DNA from: an uncultured Methanosarcinales archaeon
Lineage (GTDB): Archaea; Nanobdellota; Nanobdellia; Woesearchaeales; GW2011-AR9
NCBI GenBank assembly: GCA_964542815.1
Contig: CAZIUU010000012.1
Coordinates: 1,206-10,904, forward strand
Reading direction: 5' to 3'
Length of the DNA: 9,699 nucleotides
The first letter of the stretch is position 1; each line of letters starts with the position of its first letter. The notes beneath the pieces are model-generated. The model was given only the letters and a program-made list of their open reading frames with translations, was not told the origin of the DNA and did not search any database. Positions 183-8,660 of the stretch are shown here, in pieces. A program made the position numbers and the translations under genes.

Positions 183-1193
183 TTATTGTAACACCCTAAA
201 CTTAACCTTTGCCTCTTTCAACAAAGCCGTCCCCACATCATCCGGATAAATTGTCTTGGCAATCACTTCTTTAATCCCGGCATTAATTATCATCTTGGCA
301 CATTGATGGCAGGGGGTAAAAGTAGTATAAAGCATCGTTCCCTGGGTGGAAATTCCATTACACGCCGCCTGCACAATAGCATTCTCTTCTGCATGAGCAC
401 AGGTGCAGGGAACTGCATAATAATCTCCGGACTTGATTTTTCCCAAATGCCGCTGCGTGCACCTCAGGCAGCCACCCTGATTGCAGTTTTTGATTCCTTT
501 GGGAGTGCCGCAATACCCTGCAGAAAGAATCTGTTTTTCTTTCACAATTATCGCCCCTTTGGGAGCAGAAAGGCAATTGCTGCGTTTTTTTACCTGGTTA
601 GCGATGTTCATGAAATAATGATCCCAATCTGGACGCTCTTGCTGTAATTTAAACATCCAATCTTGAATTAAGCGTTCAACCTTACCCTGCAGCTTTTCTA
701 CAGTAGAATCATTTACTAACGTAACTTTAGCAAGCTTAGCTACCGTTTTTAATTGCTGGGCATGAGGATCAGTAGTATTTTCTAATTTTTCTTTAGCTCT
801 CATCTCTTCTAAAGTTTTAGGATCCTCTTCACGATTTCGGGCTACTAACCGTTGTAAGCGCACTTTATCTGAAGCAATTACATTAACTAACAAGAAATCT
901 TTACGCTGCTGCAGCGATTTAACTTCATCAGGATTTCTAATGGAAGTAAACACATAATTTTCTCCATCTCTCACTTTAAGCAAAGCGGATTTGGCTAAGA
1001 TGTCTGCGCCCTGTTTTAATCTTAATTCATTTCCCAGGCTGATTAAAGCATCACGGCTGATTTTTTTGTTTCTATTCTTGAGTTCTTCTCTTAAATAATC
1101 CGAAAAAGAAACATGAGTAAAGTTCATCTTCTGCAGAATTTCGGCCGCAGTATCTTTTCCTGCGCCATAACTGCCGGTAATGCCGATTATCAT
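183..1193 (-). CDS. Two-domain fusion of an N-terminal P-loop nucleotide kinase-like domain (CoaE/UPF0200-like) with a C-terminal zinc-dependent dCMP deaminase (ComEB/DCTD family)
   Basis: Residues 1-180 have a P-loop (IIGITGSYGAGKDT) and a small NMP-kinase-like layout (FTSIRNPDEV, VRLQRLVARNRE). Residues 187-336 begin with RPDWDHYFMNIANQV and carry the cytidine/dCMP deaminase zinc motifs CAHAEENAI and PCHQCAKMII, plus the GGCLRC insert typical of dCMP deaminases. Confidence 0.8.
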   Translation of the reverse strand: MIIGITGSYGAGKDTAAEILQKMNFTHVSFSDYLREELKNRNKKISRDALISLGNELRLKQGADILAKSALLKVRDGENYVFTSIRNPDEVKSLQQRKDFLLVNVIASDKVRLQRLVARNREEDPKTLEEMRAKEKLENTTDPHAQQLKTVAKLAKVTLVNDSTVEKLQGKVERLIQDWMFKLQQERPDWDHYFMNIANQVKKRSNCLSAPKGAIIVKEKQILSAGYCGTPKGIKNCNQGGCLRCTQRHLGKIKSGDYYAVPCTCAHAEENAIVQAACNGISTQGTMLYTTFTPCHQCAKMIINAGIKEVIAKTIYPDDVGTALLKEAKVKFRVLQ

Positions 1194-3680: not shown

Positions 3681-3809
3681 GTATTTGTTTAGCATCTTCA
3701 AAATCCTCGCAGTGTGATTGTAAAAGCGACATCTCCGTAGGAGTCATCCCTCTGTCGCTCTCTCAGTCATAATCAAATGGATTTTGACCTTATGATGTTA
3801 AACAAATAC
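3681..3809 (+). repeat. 129-bp nested inverted-repeat/hairpin element (candidate structured small RNA or MITE-like element)
   Basis: Five nested helices were read directly: 3681-3696/3794-3809 (16 bp), 3698-3706/3779-3787 (9 bp), 3715-3721/3769-3775 (7 bp), 3725-3731/3753-3759 (7 bp) and 3733-3736/3740-3743 (4 bp). The element is flanked by tattttttc (3672..3680) and tatttttc (3810..3817). It has no ORF and no recognisable tRNA, rRNA or C/D-box signature. Confidence 0.5.
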
Positions 3810-4126
3810 TATTTTTCTATTTCCTCATCCTCTTCGTTAAAAAAAGATTCTAGCTTCTTGCAGTTCATCTGCGCCCCATAAGATATTTTAGACACACCTA
3901 CCACCCCCAATTCCCTAAACATCTATCAAAAATAGGTAAATGGCAGGGGTATATAAATTATACTGGTGGCGAAAATATAGTGAAGGAGATTAGAAATCAA
4001 ACCGTAAGTATTGGGAATTATATTTTACAGACGAAGAAAGAACGATATTTATAGTAAATTTTTGTGTAAAAAATAGGAGTACTACTTTAAGTTAAAGAAA
4101 AAGATTCACTTTTTTTAAGAATTATT

Positions 4127-4390
4127 TTACTGTTTTTCTTTTGGAATTAGAACACTAATTTTACGAATGTGACGAATTGATTCATAACTTTCTCTTTCAA
4201 ACTTCTGGTGGACCCCGTCAAATGAATGGTAACCAAATTGATAATATCTCACTCGTGGAGATGGTTTTTCATCTATGCAATTAAAATATCCAACAGTTGT
4301 TCTGATGTCCGAACTAAATTCTACTTCAGCTTCAATCTCTATCGGAGAATATTTCGGGATATTCATCTTCACCAAATCATCAAGTTTCAT
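4127..4390 (-). CDS. Hypothetical small protein (87 aa), no recognised family
   Basis: The ORF stands alone with no competing ORF. A TATA-like gtataaatag (reverse complement of 4411..4420) lies about 25 nt upstream of the ATG at 4390, consistent with a leaderless archaeal transcript. I recognise no motifs in it. Confidence 0.45.
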   Translation of the reverse strand: MKLDDLVKMNIPKYSPIEIEAEVEFSSDIRTTVGYFNCIDEKPSPRVRYYQFGYHSFDGVHQKFERESYESIRHIRKISVLIPKEKQ

Positions 4391-4462
4391 ATGTGAATTG
4401 TAATCTCGAGTCTATTTATACTTTATGGTGCTCTATTCTCGCTGTTGTAGAGTTTACTATTT

Positions 4463-5008
4463 TTAATTCTGAGGTAATTGTTGAGCTTTCTTCCCCTTAT
4501 GTGTCTCCATGAAACTTATCACGTTATGGCTGAACAATTCTCCGGTTTCAGCATTTATCTTCAGGTTAGCAAACTTTAAAGTTTTAGTGATAAAAGAAAC
4601 GTTCCATTGCACTACTTCGTTCAAAGTTTGTAAGATAATAAACCCATTTCCTAGAATCTCTTTAGGGAAATGCAATATTTTGCTTTCATTAGCGGTTTTT
4701 TGCACTTCTCCGACGCTTACTTTAACTTTATCCAAATCTAATTCTTCTACTTTAGTGTTTTTATCTTTAAACACTTCATCAGCAGGTTTGATGGCAAAAC
4801 TCTGATTTTCTAATAAAGCAAATACAGTTATCTTCCCATCATTAGGATTAAGCCAGCCGATTTCCCATTCGCCTAATGGCTCAAGCTCAGAATTTATCGG
4901 ACAAAAAAAATGAGAAATATAACTGGATGTATGATTTTTCTTCCATTCTTGGAATAACTCTTCTTCTTTCAACAGTTCAATTACTTTCAAAGGAGAAACT
5001 AAAGACAT
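4463..5008 (-). CDS. Hypothetical protein (181 aa from the MSLVSP start), no confident family assignment; beta-rich and possibly PepSY-like
   Basis: I prefer the ATG at 5008..5006, which overlaps the TFS stop by one base (TAATG), over the track start at 5038, which would overlap TFS by 31 nt. The C-terminal WNVSF...LKINAETGELFSH loosely resembles PepSY-type repeats. That resemblance is unverified. Confidence 0.55.
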   Translation of the reverse strand: MSLVSPLKVIELLKEEELFQEWKKNHTSSYISHFFCPINSELEPLGEWEIGWLNPNDGKITVFALLENQSFAIKPADEVFKDKNTKVEELDLDKVKVSVGEVQKTANESKILHFPKEILGNGFIILQTLNEVVQWNVSFITKTLKFANLKINAETGELFSHNVISFMETHKGKKAQQLPQN

Positions 5009-5319
5009 TATGAATATTCTCTCCAAGTAAACCGGCATTTGGTGCAGCGGAAGAATCTCGTTTCCGGCTCATCTGCCCCTCGAGTTTGCTGAGTCCAATA
5101 ATAAGCCATATTATTACCGCATTTTTCACAGGTTGTTTTAATTTTAGGATGGGTTTCTAAGTTTTCCATCACTTCTATCTTCTTTCCTGCATCTACTTTT
5201 TCGGTTATTTCAGTAGATTCACCTTCTATAGATTTAGTAAAGCCGCACGTACAGAACAGTACCTTTTTACCGCCTTTATCTTTTGGTCTTAATAAAGATC
5301 CGCATTTAGGACAAAACAT
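5008..5319 (-). CDS. tfs: Transcription factor S (TFS; TFIIS/RpoM-type zinc-ribbon transcript cleavage factor)
   Basis: The N-terminal zinc ribbon is CPKCGS...CTCG. The C-terminal TFIIS-type ribbon is CEKCGNNMAYYWTQQTRGADEPETRFFRCTKCRFTW, with the acidic ADE hairpin. The 103-aa length is typical. A strong SD (ggggggtgaggg, reverse complement of 5323..5334) lies just upstream of the ATG. Confidence 0.88.
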   Translation of the reverse strand: MFCPKCGSLLRPKDKGGKKVLFCTCGFTKSIEGESTEITEKVDAGKKIEVMENLETHPKIKTTCEKCGNNMAYYWTQQTRGADEPETRFFRCTKCRFTWREYS

Positions 5320-5435
5320 AAGCCCTCACCCCCCTGTTTTAATGTAAGATTCAGGGGTAGTTTATAATAATTGTGTATAATTTTGGTTGGAGAAAAGGCG
5401 GTGTTTGAACAATATTCACTTAACTCACCCATTCG

Positions 5436-6212
5436 TTAAAAATTATAAAAAGCCCTTCCTTCAAAAGTAGTATTAGTTTTATTATCTAATTTTCCACCAA
5501 ATTGTAACAGAAATCCTCCCCCAAGCGAGAAGCGAGTTTCGGGTCCAAGAGCAATAGTTCGAGCTGATTTTTTAATTGATTGACCATATATCTGATCTTC
5601 TCCGGTTTGTTTCACCAAACTTTCTACGCCCGCCCAAAACCCGAGATGGGTATAAGCAATGGATAAGCTTCCCTGAAATACATCTCCTAGATCAACACCA
5701 GTTTTAGGATTAGTAGTCTGAAAAGTGTATTCAGTCATTACGTCAATTTCTAAAGAAGAGGCAGTATAAGTTTGAGTTAATCCTAAAGAATTATCAAAAC
5801 GTCCAGTACCCGGGCTTAGTTTTTTGGGATCAAAATCTCCAGTAGGAAACCTAACTTTAAGATAGGGAGCGATAGTCCACTCTGAGGTTAATTTCATAAT
5901 TTGGAGGGTGGTGAGACTTAAATCTCCCACTCCTTCTGTCTCTTGAGTTGGGCTGCTTTTGTAAACAAAAGGAACACTGACCATAGCACCAGCGCCAGAT
6001 TCAGTGAAATATTTCAAGATCAGATTGCTGGTCAGCACATCTATTTCTTTTTCTTTATCTTGATCTAAACGGACAATTTCTAAAACCTGCCTTCCGGTAG
6101 GAACCCTTCTGGCTAAGAGATAATCAGCTTCTGCCTGAAGAGGAAGTAAGGATAAGATTGTTCCAATCACAGCAGTTCTATTTATTGTTAATATGTTTTT
6201 ATTTACCATCAT
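5436..6212 (-). CDS. Secreted beta-barrel protein resembling bacterial outer-membrane 'MetA-pathway of phenol degradation'-type transporters
   Basis: The N-terminus has a signal peptide with an AxA site (...GTILSLLPLQAEA|DY). The mature part shows the alternating hydrophobic/polar pattern of amphipathic beta strands and Gly/Thr/Ser-rich turns. It contains the motifs GVGDLSL and RFPTGDFD. The C-terminus ends ...EGRAFYNF, with a terminal Phe and aromatic/hydrophobic residues at -3 and -5, like the bacterial OMP beta-signal. Confidence 0.6.
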   Translation of the reverse strand: MMVNKNILTINRTAVIGTILSLLPLQAEADYLLARRVPTGRQVLEIVRLDQDKEKEIDVLTSNLILKYFTESGAGAMVSVPFVYKSSPTQETEGVGDLSLTTLQIMKLTSEWTIAPYLKVRFPTGDFDPKKLSPGTGRFDNSLGLTQTYTASSLEIDVMTEYTFQTTNPKTGVDLGDVFQGSLSIAYTHLGFWAGVESLVKQTGEDQIYGQSIKKSARTIALGPETRFSLGGGFLLQFGGKLDNKTNTTFEGRAFYNF

Positions 6213-6742
6213 TCCCCCACGAACGTTAAAATAGCTTCACTTTGTTCGGGATAATTCTCTCTGACATAATTTATTATGCCCATAATTGAATCAAAATGAC
6301 CCGCTTCGCTTAGGTTCTTAGCCAAATAAATCAATTGGTTATAGGGACATTTTTTCTCGTCGATAGCAGCTTTTAACTCATCCGTCGTTACTTTTGTTGG
6401 TTTGAATCTCCAGCGTTTACCACTTTTTTGTTCATAATCAGTTATTATTGCTAGCGCAGGAGTAATACCGAATCCTAATGCAAGTTGTAATGAATAACGA
6501 TCTATTGTATCCGTTTGTGGTTTATTTCTTTCCCAGCTCAAAAAGCCATTATCAACAGCAAAAACTAATGAGCTAAAAAGAGGAGAATGTTGATTGCAAG
6601 AATAACATGCGAACATAACACTAGCATAAATTGCATCTTGATATTCTCTAGTCTCTAAAGCTCTCTTCAAAGCTTCATAAGCTTGGTTGGTTTGAAACTC
6701 CAATGCCTTTAATTGTGTAGGTATTAAGCACATTCTGACCAT
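6209..6742 (-). CDS. Hypothetical protein (177 aa), predicted cytoplasmic, no recognised family; co-operonic with the beta-barrel gene
   Basis: This is a clean ORF. Its TGA stop overlaps the ATG of the downstream gene (ATGA at 6209..6212), and a G-rich SD-like tggggga lies within its last codons. It has no signal peptide and no motif I can name. Confidence 0.5.
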   Translation of the reverse strand: MVRMCLIPTQLKALEFQTNQAYEALKRALETREYQDAIYASVMFACYSCNQHSPLFSSLVFAVDNGFLSWERNKPQTDTIDRYSLQLALGFGITPALAIITDYEQKSGKRWRFKPTKVTTDELKAAIDEKKCPYNQLIYLAKNLSEAGHFDSIMGIINYVRENYPEQSEAILTFVGE

Positions 6743-6843
6743 GTTTATTGTTTTGGAACCGTTTTATTATGTATTGTTATTTTTACTTTTAAGTGGTTTA
6801 AAGCGAAATACTTAAATACTATTTCCCCTCAAGGGGGTTAAAA

Positions 6844-7974
6844 ATGATAGAAAATGCCTTGCGAGAAATAGGATTAACTGAAGGGGAAATCAAGGTATAC
6901 CTTGCTTTATTAGAAATTGGTACAACTACTACTGGTAAAATCATTAAACAATCAAAGATAAGCGCTTCTAAAGTTTACCAAATCTTAGAAAAATTAAGCC
7001 AGAAAGGATTGGTAAGCCAGGTGATAAAACAAAAAACGAGATATTTCCAAGCTGCCGATCCCAAAAGAATTATTGATTATTTATCAGATAAAGAAATTGC
7101 GTTAGGAGAACAAAAAGAAAATATTCAGAAACTGCTTCCGGCATTATGGATTAAACAGCAAAAATCAGAAAGCGGAGCAGAGATGTATCAAGGTTTAGGC
7201 GGAATAAAAACTATGTTTTATTCTATTCTCAATGATTTAAAGAAAAGTGAAGAATATTATGTTATAGGGGCTGGTTTAGGGTTCCAAAATAATGAAATAG
7301 TTCAGCTAATGTTAAAAGAATTTCATCAAAAAAGAGCTCAAAAAGGAATTTTTGCTAATTTATTGTATAATTTTGAGCTTTATCCGCTGACTAAAGAACT
7401 TAAATTTAAACTGTGTAAGATTAAACCAATGCCTCAAGAATTGAGTACCAGTACTCAAATAATGATTTTTGAAGAAAAGATATTTCTTATTCTTTGGAAG
7501 AAAGATCCGCTTGGGTTTGTAATTAAAGATTTGGAACTACGAGATAGCTTCAAAAAATATTTTGATTCTTTATGGAATAGGGACATCCAAACATTTAAGG
7601 GTTATGAGGGAATAAAATCGGTTTTTGAAGATACTTTAAACCATAAAGAAGTCCTGTTTATAGGTGCGGGCGGGTACATCTCCATTAGAATGCCGGAATA
7701 TTGGAAAGAATACAATATAAAGAGAATTGCTCGAAAACAGAAATGGAAAATATTGGCACGAGAATCAATAAAAAACACTCCTCTCATAAAAGAGCGGTTT
7801 ATAGATTACAAAATTCTATCTAAAACTTATCTTACTCCCAACGTAGTTTGGATTTTTGGAGATATGGTTGCGAATGTTCTTTGGACTGAAGAGCCAATCG
7901 CTTTTGTGGTGGAAAATAAAGAAGTAGCTAAAAGTTATCGAGAATATTTTAATAGTCTCTGGAACAAATCATAA
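6844..7974 (+). CDS. TrmB-family transcriptional regulator with a tandemly duplicated C-terminal domain
   Basis: The N-terminal winged HTH is typical of TrmB (LTEGEIKVYLALLEIGTTTTGKIIKQSKISASKVYQILEKLSQKGLV). A coiled linker follows, then two homologous modules of about 130 aa ending FKKYFDSLWNRD and YREYFNSLWNKS. An SD-like gggggt lies 5 nt upstream of the ATG. Confidence 0.8.
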   Translation: MIENALREIGLTEGEIKVYLALLEIGTTTTGKIIKQSKISASKVYQILEKLSQKGLVSQVIKQKTRYFQAADPKRIIDYLSDKEIALGEQKENIQKLLPALWIKQQKSESGAEMYQGLGGIKTMFYSILNDLKKSEEYYVIGAGLGFQNNEIVQLMLKEFHQKRAQKGIFANLLYNFELYPLTKELKFKLCKIKPMPQELSTSTQIMIFEEKIFLILWKKDPLGFVIKDLELRDSFKKYFDSLWNRDIQTFKGYEGIKSVFEDTLNHKEVLFIGAGGYISIRMPEYWKEYNIKRIARKQKWKILARESIKNTPLIKERFIDYKILSKTYLTPNVVWIFGDMVANVLWTEEPIAFVVENKEVAKSYREYFNSLWNKS

Positions 7975-7988
7975 TGATTAAAACAAGT

Positions 7989-8660
7989 CTACTTCTCAAT
8001 CTGTATCCCTACTAATTTAGCTGCGTCTACCGCCAGAATCTTAACCCAGCCAAGATAAGGCACCCTAATCAATCCTTTGCCATAAACCCGACTTTCTTCA
8101 ATCTTAGTTTCGCCCAGCGTTCCGGTAATACTGGCGCTATTGTGATCACCTTTAGTGTGATAGAAATACTGCCCATTTTCCTGCCAGACTTTTACTACGC
8201 GATGAATTATTGGCTGGGGCTTAGTTCCCTGAAATACTAATACATCACCAACTTCAATGTTTCTTTTATTAGCTCTCCACAATAGGATTACATCTCCTTT
8301 ATCAAACCCGTTCTGAAATGAGAATTGAGCAAATTGGGCTTTAGTTATTCCATTGTTTTCATACCAATCTCCGCATAATTTCCAATAATTATCAAATGAT
8401 TCCGGAAACGCTTTAAGACTATACCCACAAATAGCTCCGGCATCAATTCCATGTTCCATGCTTTCGCTGACTACCGCAACTAAAGGATAGCTCGTTCCTA
8501 ATAATAATCCTAGAAGAGGATATACTACAAATTTGATTAGGATAAATGCTACTACCACATTAGCCAGCCAGCTCCAAGCAGAATCGTCTTCCCATAAGAA
8601 GTGCCAGAACTTCTTAAGCCAGTGTTTGGAAGTATTCCTAGACCTATTTATATCCACCAT
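7989..8660 (-). CDS. Signal peptidase I, archaeal/ER (Sec11, S26B) type
   Basis: It has an N-terminal TM anchor (WLANVVVAFILIKFVVYPLLGLLLG), a Ser box VSESMEH, GDVILL/GDVLVF boxes, a His box IIHRVV and the Sec11-type KGDHN motif. These are consistent with the Ser/His enzymes of archaea and eukaryotes. Confidence 0.8.
   Translation of the reverse strand: MVDINRSRNTSKHWLKKFWHFLWEDDSAWSWLANVVVAFILIKFVVYPLLGLLLGTSYPLVAVVSESMEHGIDAGAICGYSLKAFPESFDNYWKLCGDWYENNGITKAQFAQFSFQNGFDKGDVILLWRANKRNIEVGDVLVFQGTKPQPIIHRVVKVWQENGQYFYHTKGDHNSASITGTLGETKIEESRVYGKGLIRVPYLGWVKILAVDAAKLVGIQIEK

Follow-up and report, generated by a model that had tools for sequence, protein, structure and literature searches.

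A COG4313-type β-barrel predicted in DPANN archaea and its pairing with a TrmB-family regulator

Transmembrane β-barrels of the outer-membrane protein (OMP) type are regarded as characteristic of diderm bacteria, mitochondria, and plastids. Why, then, should a gene for such a protein lie among archaeal genes? The question is raised by a 9,699-nucleotide stretch of contig CAZIUU010000012.1 from an uncultured archaeon of the Woesearchaeales (hereafter, the window). An earlier reading of this DNA from its letters alone (the sequence-only reading) had pointed to a 258-aa protein resembling bacterial outer-membrane channels of the Phenol_MetA_deg family, encoded together with a 177-aa operon partner (orf177). 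The follow-up analysis described here indicates that the protein is a member of that family by sequence and predicted fold, that it resides in DPANN archaea, and that its constant partner is not orf177 but a TrmB-family regulator.

The gene layout given in the sequence-only reading was confirmed. The 258-aa and 177-aa open reading frames (ORFs) overlap by 4 nt (GGGGGAATGATGG on the minus strand, ATGA), and 116 nt separate the barrel stop codon at 5436 from the start of the gene for transcription factor S (TFS) at 5319. The barrel protein was examined with hidden Markov models (HMMs) and matched Pfam PF13557 (Phenol_MetA_deg, that is, COG4313) with 80.2 bits (cut-off 22, E 3.3e-22) over profile positions 60–238 of 242, which is far beyond chance. 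The motifs that had suggested the family, GVGDLSL and RFPTGDFD (the latter at 5829–5852), are present, as is the C-terminal RAFYNF. GVGDLSL aligns with GVGDLTLT of the COG4313 channel Pput2725 (4rl8), where Asp92 and Thr94 belong to the conserved loop cluster (D92, T94, P119, T120, G121, Y123, N130, N134, and N166), and its residues G94 and D97 are invariant in our alignment A2. Residues 121–140, a PTG motif followed by a G-x-G-R-x-D loop, align with PTGNY...LNLGENR of 4rl8; P123, G125, and G135 are invariant and T124, G137, R138, and D140 nearly so. The HMM alignment pairs D97, S99, P123, T124, G125, and F127 with D92, T94, P119, T120, G121, and Y123 of Pput2725.

For the structure prediction, AlphaFold2 was run on a 14-sequence alignment of the barrel. 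The model contains 12 long β-strands, with a predicted local distance difference test score (pLDDT) of 84.4 and a predicted template modeling score of 0.77; the signal peptide forms a detached helix of low pLDDT, and residues 22–39 are of low confidence. A Foldseek comparison with the PDB placed FapF at the top (5o65/5o68, E 1e-11 to 1e-9, TM 0.70–0.77; for 5o65, E 2.7e-11 and TM 0.75), followed by the COG4313 channel Pput2725 (4rl8, E 2.2e-8, TM 0.74) and by the lower-ranking NanC, KdgM, autotransporter, intimin, and OmpG barrels. A broader profile of DPANN barrels matched 4rl8 at E 3.6e-4, and the profile of the closest relatives (clade 1, defined below) alone had no match among the PDB sequences. 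The protein is thus predicted to be a closed, 12-stranded, bacterial-type transmembrane barrel. The fold proposed from the letters was thereby borne out, the model being neither a soluble β-sandwich nor a structure lacking OMP matches.

With the Gram-negative COG4313 channels (Pput2725, TcpY, and SphA), the window barrel shares the family HMM match, a predicted 12-stranded barrel of equal size, a signal peptide, a short conserved segment ahead of strand 1, the GxGD and PTG[DN][YF] motifs in the loops, and an aromatic residue at the C-terminus, and its membership in PF13557/COG4313 holds by sequence and predicted fold. Unlike them, it occurs in archaea without a known outer membrane or β-barrel assembly machinery (BAM), is paired with a TrmB regulator rather than with aromatic- or sphingosine-catabolic genes, and does not keep the cluster asparagines: the positions of Asn130 and Asn134 are S/P and G. 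It is only ~17% identical to 4RL8. FapF, the secretion channel for functional amyloid in Pseudomonas (5O65), is the best structural match and is part of the same broad group of COG4313-type barrels, but an orthologue of FapF was ruled out. FapF has an N-terminal coiled-coil/plug and is encoded in the fapA-F operon, whereas the mature window protein (229 aa, no Cys) consists of the barrel only and is encoded beside TrmB, orf177, and TFS, with no fap genes; nothing in it points to trimerization or to an amyloid substrate. The PopA lipid-trapping superfamily, for which a possible Altiarchaeales relative has been mentioned (PMC12228718), was also considered and is a different family. A search for Cyc2-type fused porins in DPANN found nothing relevant.

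The same model bears on whether the protein enters a membrane at all. It could be a secreted or surface-layer-associated binder of hydrophobic ligands, its hydrophobic belt buried by oligomerization; such a role would suit a protein for which neither a host membrane nor an assembly machine can be named, and whose family binds detergent and hydrophobic molecules within the barrel. However, most strands have one clearly hydrophobic face in an alternating pattern, the geometry is that of a 12-stranded barrel, the best structural matches are all integral OMPs, and the family offers no soluble precedent. We consider a soluble binder highly unlikely.

The precursor is predicted to bear a cleavable Sec signal peptide with an AEA/D site, in line with the AEA/DY cleavage proposed earlier. 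The layout comprises a basic n-region (K5, R12), the hydrophobic core AVIGTILSLLPL, and AEA before D30; among the homologues, the length preceding the core varies, and the stretch from G17 through AEAD is invariant, which agrees with this layout. The mature protein begins with a 10–13-residue segment; in both clade 1 and the distant group described below, its residues D30, P38, T39, and Q42 hardly vary. In Pput2725, the N-terminal 14 residues block the barrel (PMC4493636). By analogy, the segment DYLLARRVPTGRQ may be placed in the barrel lumen, the AlphaFold2 confidence there being low (45–57). At the other end, the terminal Phe is found in 8/8 clade-1 and 28/40 distant-group sequences, and a few archaeal members have short extensions past NF.

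The residence of the gene in an archaeon was examined next to its flanks. The neighborhood is archaeal, as the sequence-only reading had it, with matches to TIGR01384 (TFS), TIGR02228 (signal peptidase I), and PF01978 (TrmB), and it is of the Woesearchaeota type within DPANN. The cluster of at least 90% identity to which TFS belongs holds MBI4980428.1 of Candidatus Woesearchaeota archaeon, and the clusters of TFS and signal peptidase I at this identity both include proteins so labeled. The window is collinear with JACRPH010000018.1, a metagenome-assembled genome (MAG) contig of Woesearchaeota, over orf230, the signal peptidase, TFS, the next ORF, Tmk, ThyX, and the deaminase-kinase gene, at 78–91% nucleotide identity.

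Against this background, the gene could still be an artefact or a dead passenger, that is, a bacterial fragment that was mis-binned or joined in a chimera, or a recent transfer in decay. The family is overwhelmingly bacterial, and the contig of one close relative looks bacterial. Nevertheless, the orf177–barrel arrangement was recovered in an independent assembly from a Logan run, the archaeal flanks are collinear with sharp module boundaries, and the paired archaeal regulator is conserved in many MAGs. The GC content at third codon positions (GC3) of the barrel gene (0.27) is ameliorated to that of its neighbors (0.26–0.38), and archaeal-style G-runs resembling Shine–Dalgarno (SD) sequences (GGGGG/GGTGA) precede both the barrel and TFS genes. 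The ratio of nonsynonymous to synonymous substitution rates (dN/dS) among five members of the barrel clade is 0.13–0.20, so the gene is under purifying selection. Because of the archaeal flanks, the independent assembly, the GC3, the SD-like sequences, and the dN/dS values, we rejected chimerism, contamination, and pseudogene decay; an artefact is hardly credible.

The relatives of the barrel were searched for in several collections; below, loci are denoted by L-numbers and barrel proteins by P-numbers. A word-indexed search of 5.8 billion clusters returned only four close homologues (72–100% identity), and HMMER, run exhaustively against 1.84 billion representatives, returned 35 proteins at E ≤ 1e-3, four of them at E ≤ 1e-10. 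Since the relatives are so few, the window barrel belongs to a small, divergent branch, clade 1 (the window barrel, P0002–4, P0024, P0025, and P0027). The clade-1 profile had no match in the contigs of one genome per species or in the IMG/VR viral contigs, and a metagenome scan with it added L010 and L011 only. In L011, the product of 81–1892 (P0026) joins, in one reading frame, the N-terminal half of a clade-1 barrel to ~450 aa of immunoglobulin/fibronectin type III-like repeats; this is either a fusion protein with a truncated barrel or an artefact of assembly.

The next-best matches form a distant group at ~25% identity, with the motif ...ADD..G.RGPT..Q...KYWDG...RYNF; half of this group is below Pfam detection. 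Searched against one genome per GTDB species, its profile found nine loci, all of them in archaeal MAGs (labeled Nanoarchaeia, Nanoarchaeota, Pacearchaeota, Woesearchaeota, "archaeon", or "Methanosarcinales") and on contigs of up to 258 kb. These and related contigs carry archaeal markers (L44e, eIF-1A, CDP-archaeol synthase, diphthamide synthase, and an archaeal Hel308 domain). On one of them, L027, which has eIF-1A and the regulator–barrel module, the ORF at 9943–10404 encodes a bacterial-type lipoprotein signal peptidase (Peptidase_A8, LspA). The nearest relatives with readable context are nearly all in DPANN MAGs (Woese-, Pace-, and Nanoarchaeota), and the more distant matches (P0080 group) are clearly bacterial. 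The family is thus an old bacterial one, a clade of which resides in DPANN. Of the earlier proposal of a horizontal acquisition from bacteria with a new role, the part that stands is an old acquisition kept under selection, which our data support; a single one-off transfer does not fit the DPANN-wide clade.

The gene that accompanies the barrel from locus to locus encodes the TrmB-family regulator, which is transcribed divergently from it, as had been noticed before. The helix-turn-helix (HTH) domain of the window regulator matches PF01978 (E 9e-17), and among PDB entries the protein matches TrmB (3qph, E 6.7e-5, residues 2–115) and TrmBL2 (5bpd, E 1.5e-3, residues 10–187). Its C-terminal domain is duplicated internally (28% identity, E 4e-15) and has no significant match in Pfam (PLDc_2, E 0.17). 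The regulators beside the distant barrels are shorter (242–265 aa), with one C-terminal copy, and align to the window regulator at E 8e-34. For the count of regulators, ORFs were clustered across the loci, and L007, L011, and L026, which have no upstream DNA, were set outside it. A divergent TrmB-like gene stands directly upstream of the barrel in the window, L001/L010, L012, L013–L020, L025, and L027, and its start is visible in L009; the only archaeal locus with readable upstream DNA and no such gene is L021. The TrmB regulator and the barrel form a conserved two-gene unit. Besides the MAG of the window, its carriers include JBBSXN01, JBDRHG01, VGKP01, JACRKL01, DATDUA01, and JAGVOV01. The pairwise divergences of the two proteins are correlated (Spearman 0.75 over 78 pairs; 0.68 within the distant group), which, the pairs being non-independent, is only consistent with their co-inheritance.

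The region between the two genes has its own conserved sequences. In 9/10 distant-group intergenic regions (L013–L020, L025, and L027), the palindrome [AG]TGGT[AG][TG]-N6-7-[AT][TC][AC]CCA[CT] was found, typically GTGGTAT-N7-ATACCAC, with a TATA-like box on either side (e.g., L013 2393–2413). Elsewhere, the GTGGTAT-N6-7-ATACCAC pattern occurs once in 248 kb. L017 has the inverted repeat TTCTCC-N5-GGAGAA in the same place instead. The palindrome looks like the operator of an autoregulated repressor. It is of the same style as TATCAC-N5-GTGATA, which we take to be the TrmB-type site of Thermococcales. The TrmB and TrmBL1 operons of Thermococcales (trehalose/maltose and maltodextrin ABC transporters) likewise have a palindrome in the promoter region and a TrmB-family regulator adjoining the transport gene that it presumably controls. 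They differ in that the target in the window is a β-barrel and not an ABC transporter, and in the C-terminal domain of the barrel-linked regulators, which is short (one copy) or, in the window, duplicated. In the window, the intergenic region contains a TATA-like TTTAAAC (6796–6802), the direct repeat AGTATTT-A-AGTATTT (6806–6820), and the inverted repeat CCCCCTTGAGGGG (6825–6837). Its first ~60 nt are conserved in the window, L001, L009, L010, and L012, up to the barrel ATG or the start of orf177.

What follows this conserved promoter stretch varies. In L001, L010, and L012 the barrel ATG comes directly, and in the window and L009 there is a ~560-bp insert with orf177. The barrels of L012 and L009 are nearly identical (dS 0.15), yet orf177 is present only in L009. 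In other loci, the same slot holds unrelated genes: a Flavin_Reduct protein in L025 and L027, a 291-aa protein without an assigned family in L016, and elsewhere ORFs of 147 and 207 aa, the latter weakly receiver-like (L019). Several slot genes likewise overlap the barrel start by 4 nt. As stated in the sequence-only reading, orf177 has no recognizable family (no match in Pfam, NCBIfam, PHROGs, or PADLOC; a hit to NAD_binding_6 at E 0.068 was dismissed as noise). Only two homologues were found among the 5.8 billion clusters, and the AlphaFold2 model built from two sequences (pLDDT 47) is unusable. These observations show that orf177 is optional cargo and not a required subunit. Its suggested place as a fixed operon partner could not be upheld, and of the regulated two-component unit proposed earlier, the regulator–barrel pair is conserved, with orf177 as its second component replaced by a variable slot.

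The module as a whole also changes its place. In L028 (GCA_016214025.1, Woesearchaeota), the flanks are collinear with the window at 78–91% identity, and the blastn alignment shows 74 bp in place of window positions 5341–7989. Conversely, L001 shares the module alone (5436–6169 and 6757–7973, 84–86% identity) in an unrelated neighborhood, with a 120-aa ORF on one side and dnaJ on the other. The regulator and the barrel therefore constitute a relocatable module. Its ends have no terminal direct or inverted repeats, no transposase or integrase was seen in the window, and no copies of the barrel clade were found in the IMG/VR viral contigs. Reading the variable module as a defense system was rejected, as PADLOC gave nothing beyond the HTH. 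Because signal peptidase I adjoins TFS in the relative without the module too, its proximity to the barrel is incidental. The coordinates of the features are collected in Table 1.

Table 1. Position of the module, its parts, and two flanking archaeal genes in the window
Feature	Position	Strand	Basis or remark
Accessory module (regulator, orf177, barrel), 2.65 kb	5341..7989	.	blastn vs L028
TrmB-family regulator, 376 aa, winged HTH and two tandem ~130-aa C-terminal domains	6844..7974	+	
Shared divergent promoter/operator region	6743..6843	.	conservation; putative operator function
orf177, variable slot gene, 177 aa, overlaps the barrel start by 4 nt	6209..6742	-	
Barrel gene, 258 aa, predicted precursor of a COG4313/Phenol_MetA_deg 12-stranded β-barrel	5436..6212	-	HMM, AlphaFold2, Foldseek, dN/dS
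Predicted signal peptide, residues 1-29 (MMVNKNILTINRTAVIGTILSLLPLQAEA / D)	6126..6212	-	n/h/c layout, A-x-A site
Conserved mature N-terminal segment DYLLARRVPTGRQ, before strand 1, candidate lumen plug	6087..6125	-	
GVGDLSL motif, residues 94-100, in the conserved loop cluster of the family	5913..5933	-	
RFPTGDFD ... SPGTGRFD, residues 121-140, PTG motif and G-x-G-R-x-D loop	5793..5852	-	
C-terminal strand EGRAFYNF, terminal Phe, resembles a β-signal	5439..5462 (with stop, 5436-5462)	-	
TFS, archaeal marker, own TATA-like box and SD-like sequence	5008..5319	-	TIGR01384, 1.7e-24
Archaeal-type signal peptidase I	7989..8660	-	TIGR02228, 1e-21; enzyme class that would cleave the barrel precursor

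The reading of the module that we favor, with modest confidence, is that of a Sec-exported, plugged channel for amphipathic molecules, placed in a cell-surface bilayer and controlled by a ligand-responsive TrmB regulator. The regulator would bind the intergenic operator and, in the distant group, where the palindrome stands between two TATA-like boxes, would probably repress both promoters. As the promoter anatomy suggests, a small-molecule ligand would relieve this control. The precursor would be exported by Sec and cleaved after AEA by the archaeal signal peptidase I, and the mature barrel would then fold without BAM into a lipid bilayer of the cell surface. There, it would serve as a narrow channel with a plug, passing small molecules of an amphipathic or hydrophobic kind, such as lipid-like nutrients, as proposed for the bacterial COG4313 channels. 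This substrate class is suggested by homology only (TcpY, SphA, Pput2725); the COG4313 channels have been tied to hydrophobic substrates and lateral diffusion, and detergent and hydrophobic molecules are bound inside the barrel in this family (PMC4493636).

The least certain part of this reading is the membrane that receives the barrel. Our belief in the cell's own envelope, whether the cytoplasmic membrane or an undescribed outer layer, falls a little short of an even chance, a partner cell receives a clearly smaller share, and the rest goes to other places. We put the cell's own envelope with BAM-independent insertion first because small barrels can fold without BAM in vitro, Pput2725 having been refolded from inclusion bodies (PMC4493636), and because the archaeon's own membrane would be the nearest bilayer after Sec export and cleavage.

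Several points weigh against the favored reading. We know of no archaeon with BAM or Omp85, of no outer membrane demonstrated for Woese- or Pacearchaeota, and of no precedent for β-barrels in a cytoplasmic membrane. Our search of the literature on DPANN envelopes also found nothing on BAM/Omp85 or an outer membrane in Woese- or Pacearchaeota. The well-kept terminal Phe resembles the BAM signal and is easier to reconcile with a bacterial assembly machine than with spontaneous insertion. The absence of the module from the same site in a close relative shows that it is not a core component of the envelope. The slot genes carry no consistent hint of the substrate. The window clade lacks the palindrome of the distant group and has its own conserved intergenic sequence instead, in which the position of an operator can only be guessed. 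Finally, the barrel clade is not purely archaeal: P0073 (L022 4006–4776, DNJG01000145.1), from a MAG labeled Nitrospinae, lies in a bacterial-looking operon with a phosphodiesterase and three sulfatases. In a crude neighbor-joining tree, P0073 is nested among archaeal sequences; it may represent an archaeon-to-bacterium transfer or give a hint of the substrate class.

If the barrel does not act in the cytoplasmic membrane, it would act as an exported OMP in another one, either the outer membrane of a Gram-negative partner, whose BAM would assemble it for the scavenging of lipids or hydrophobic nutrients, or an archaeal outer membrane not yet described, in which it would assemble independently of BAM. 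We regard this only as a tentative alternative. The partner-membrane and the archaeal-outer-membrane readings were kept because the terminal Phe is retained and because Woese- and Pacearchaeota with small genomes have been proposed to attach to bacteria via giant extracellular murein transglycosylases (PMC8204110, PMC9723730).

The first of them can be worded more narrowly: the barrel would be a host-interaction factor, exported by an episymbiont and assembled in the membrane of its partner (a Gram-negative outer membrane via its BAM, or the membrane of an archaeal host) as a route for lipids or hydrophobic nutrients. The retained C-terminal aromatic signal and the association of COG4313 channels with hydrophobic substrates and lateral diffusion would suit such a factor, the module, like many host-interaction genes, is accessory and varies between strains, and its carriers belong to the same lineages for which bacterial hosts were proposed (PMC8204110, PMC9723730). 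On the other hand, the unfolded OMP would have to get to a foreign periplasm, and there is no delivery apparatus beside the gene. No secreted OMP-type barrel toxin acting between prokaryotes is known to us. In addition, no host is known for the carriers of the barrel, and a ligand-sensing TrmB regulator suits nutrient-responsive transport equally well as attack. A host-interaction factor is therefore doubtful in our view.

Alternatively, the DPANN carriers might be diderm, and the barrel an ordinary substrate-specific channel of an archaeal outer membrane, assembled by an unrecognized or divergent Omp85-like machine. It has all the features of a bona fide OMP (a signal peptide, an amphipathic 12-stranded barrel, and a terminal Phe, as predicted), and it is widespread and under purifying selection in many DPANN lineages. 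Double membranes have reportedly been seen in a few archaea, including ARMAN-type DPANN. Were this explanation right, the barrel would share an archaeal outer lipid layer with the OMPs of double-membraned archaea such as Ihomp1 of Ignicoccus, which is said to be a small α-helical protein unrelated to bacterial OMP barrels; to our knowledge, no bacterial-type barrel has been described in outer layers of the Ignicoccus type. Yet a diderm would need many OMP families and only one has surfaced, the module is dispensable in a close relative, and a survey of DPANN protein families is silent on outer membranes, porins, and barrels (PMC8204110). No Omp85 was found in the ~250 kb of flanking DNA examined for Pfam content, a very small sample. 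We consider diderm carriers unlikely.

Some observations concern other parts of the window. The ATG of orf191, if its start is Met11, overlaps the TFS stop codon by 1 nt (5006–5010), and a 179-aa gene in L028 overlaps TFS in the same way (3471); this would give a conserved, translationally coupled pair of TFS and a protein without a known family role. The gene at 183–1193 (minus strand) encodes a fusion of a nucleotide kinase and a dCMP deaminase, which matched the PADLOC model of an anti-phage dCTP deaminase (E 3.4e-55) and, with a score far under the model cut-off, NCBIfam NF041025 (E 1.4e-40). It adjoins Tmk and a double-length ThyX (525 aa, two Thy1 stretches), is syntenic in L028, and probably serves housekeeping pyrimidine metabolism, not defense. 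An intergenic block of ~225 bp (3815–4040) matches three contigs of a related Woesearchaeota population (L028–L030) at almost 100% identity, although the coding DNA flanking the block is only 78–89% identical. It contains a 37-aa ORF (3809–3922, minus strand) and a TATATAAAT box, has no Rfam match even at E ≤ 1, gives fold z-scores of about −1, and may represent a short gene or an RNA not described before. Compared with L028, the window has a second indel at 4134–4473, where orf87 (87 aa, 4127–4390, minus strand; no family match) and its surroundings have no counterpart. Scans of the window for tRNA genes and Rfam families gave no hits, and the scan for sigma-70 promoters and intrinsic terminators was uninformative, the host being an archaeon.

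In the DPANN literature, most subscription journals of which were not covered, we found no earlier description of OMP barrels, porins, COG4313 proteins, or a TrmB–barrel module; database curators may have already met archaeal entries of PF13557. What is new is the occurrence of a known family in an unexpected domain of life, its conserved regulatory partner, and the modular, mobile organization of the two. A selected and regulated barrel clade across DPANN raises the question of whether these archaea have an outer lipid layer, assemble barrels without BAM, or place them in the membrane of a partner. If the barrel does act in another membrane, the rule that OMP barrels occur only in diderm bacteria and the organelles descended from them would fall. 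The module offers a handle on the envelope of uncultured Woese- and Pacearchaeota and on the way in which lipid- and nutrient-dependent DPANN draw material from their partners, possibly bacterial ones. As it is small, comprising a regulator, an operator, and one barrel, in vitro work on it is feasible without cultivating the organism.

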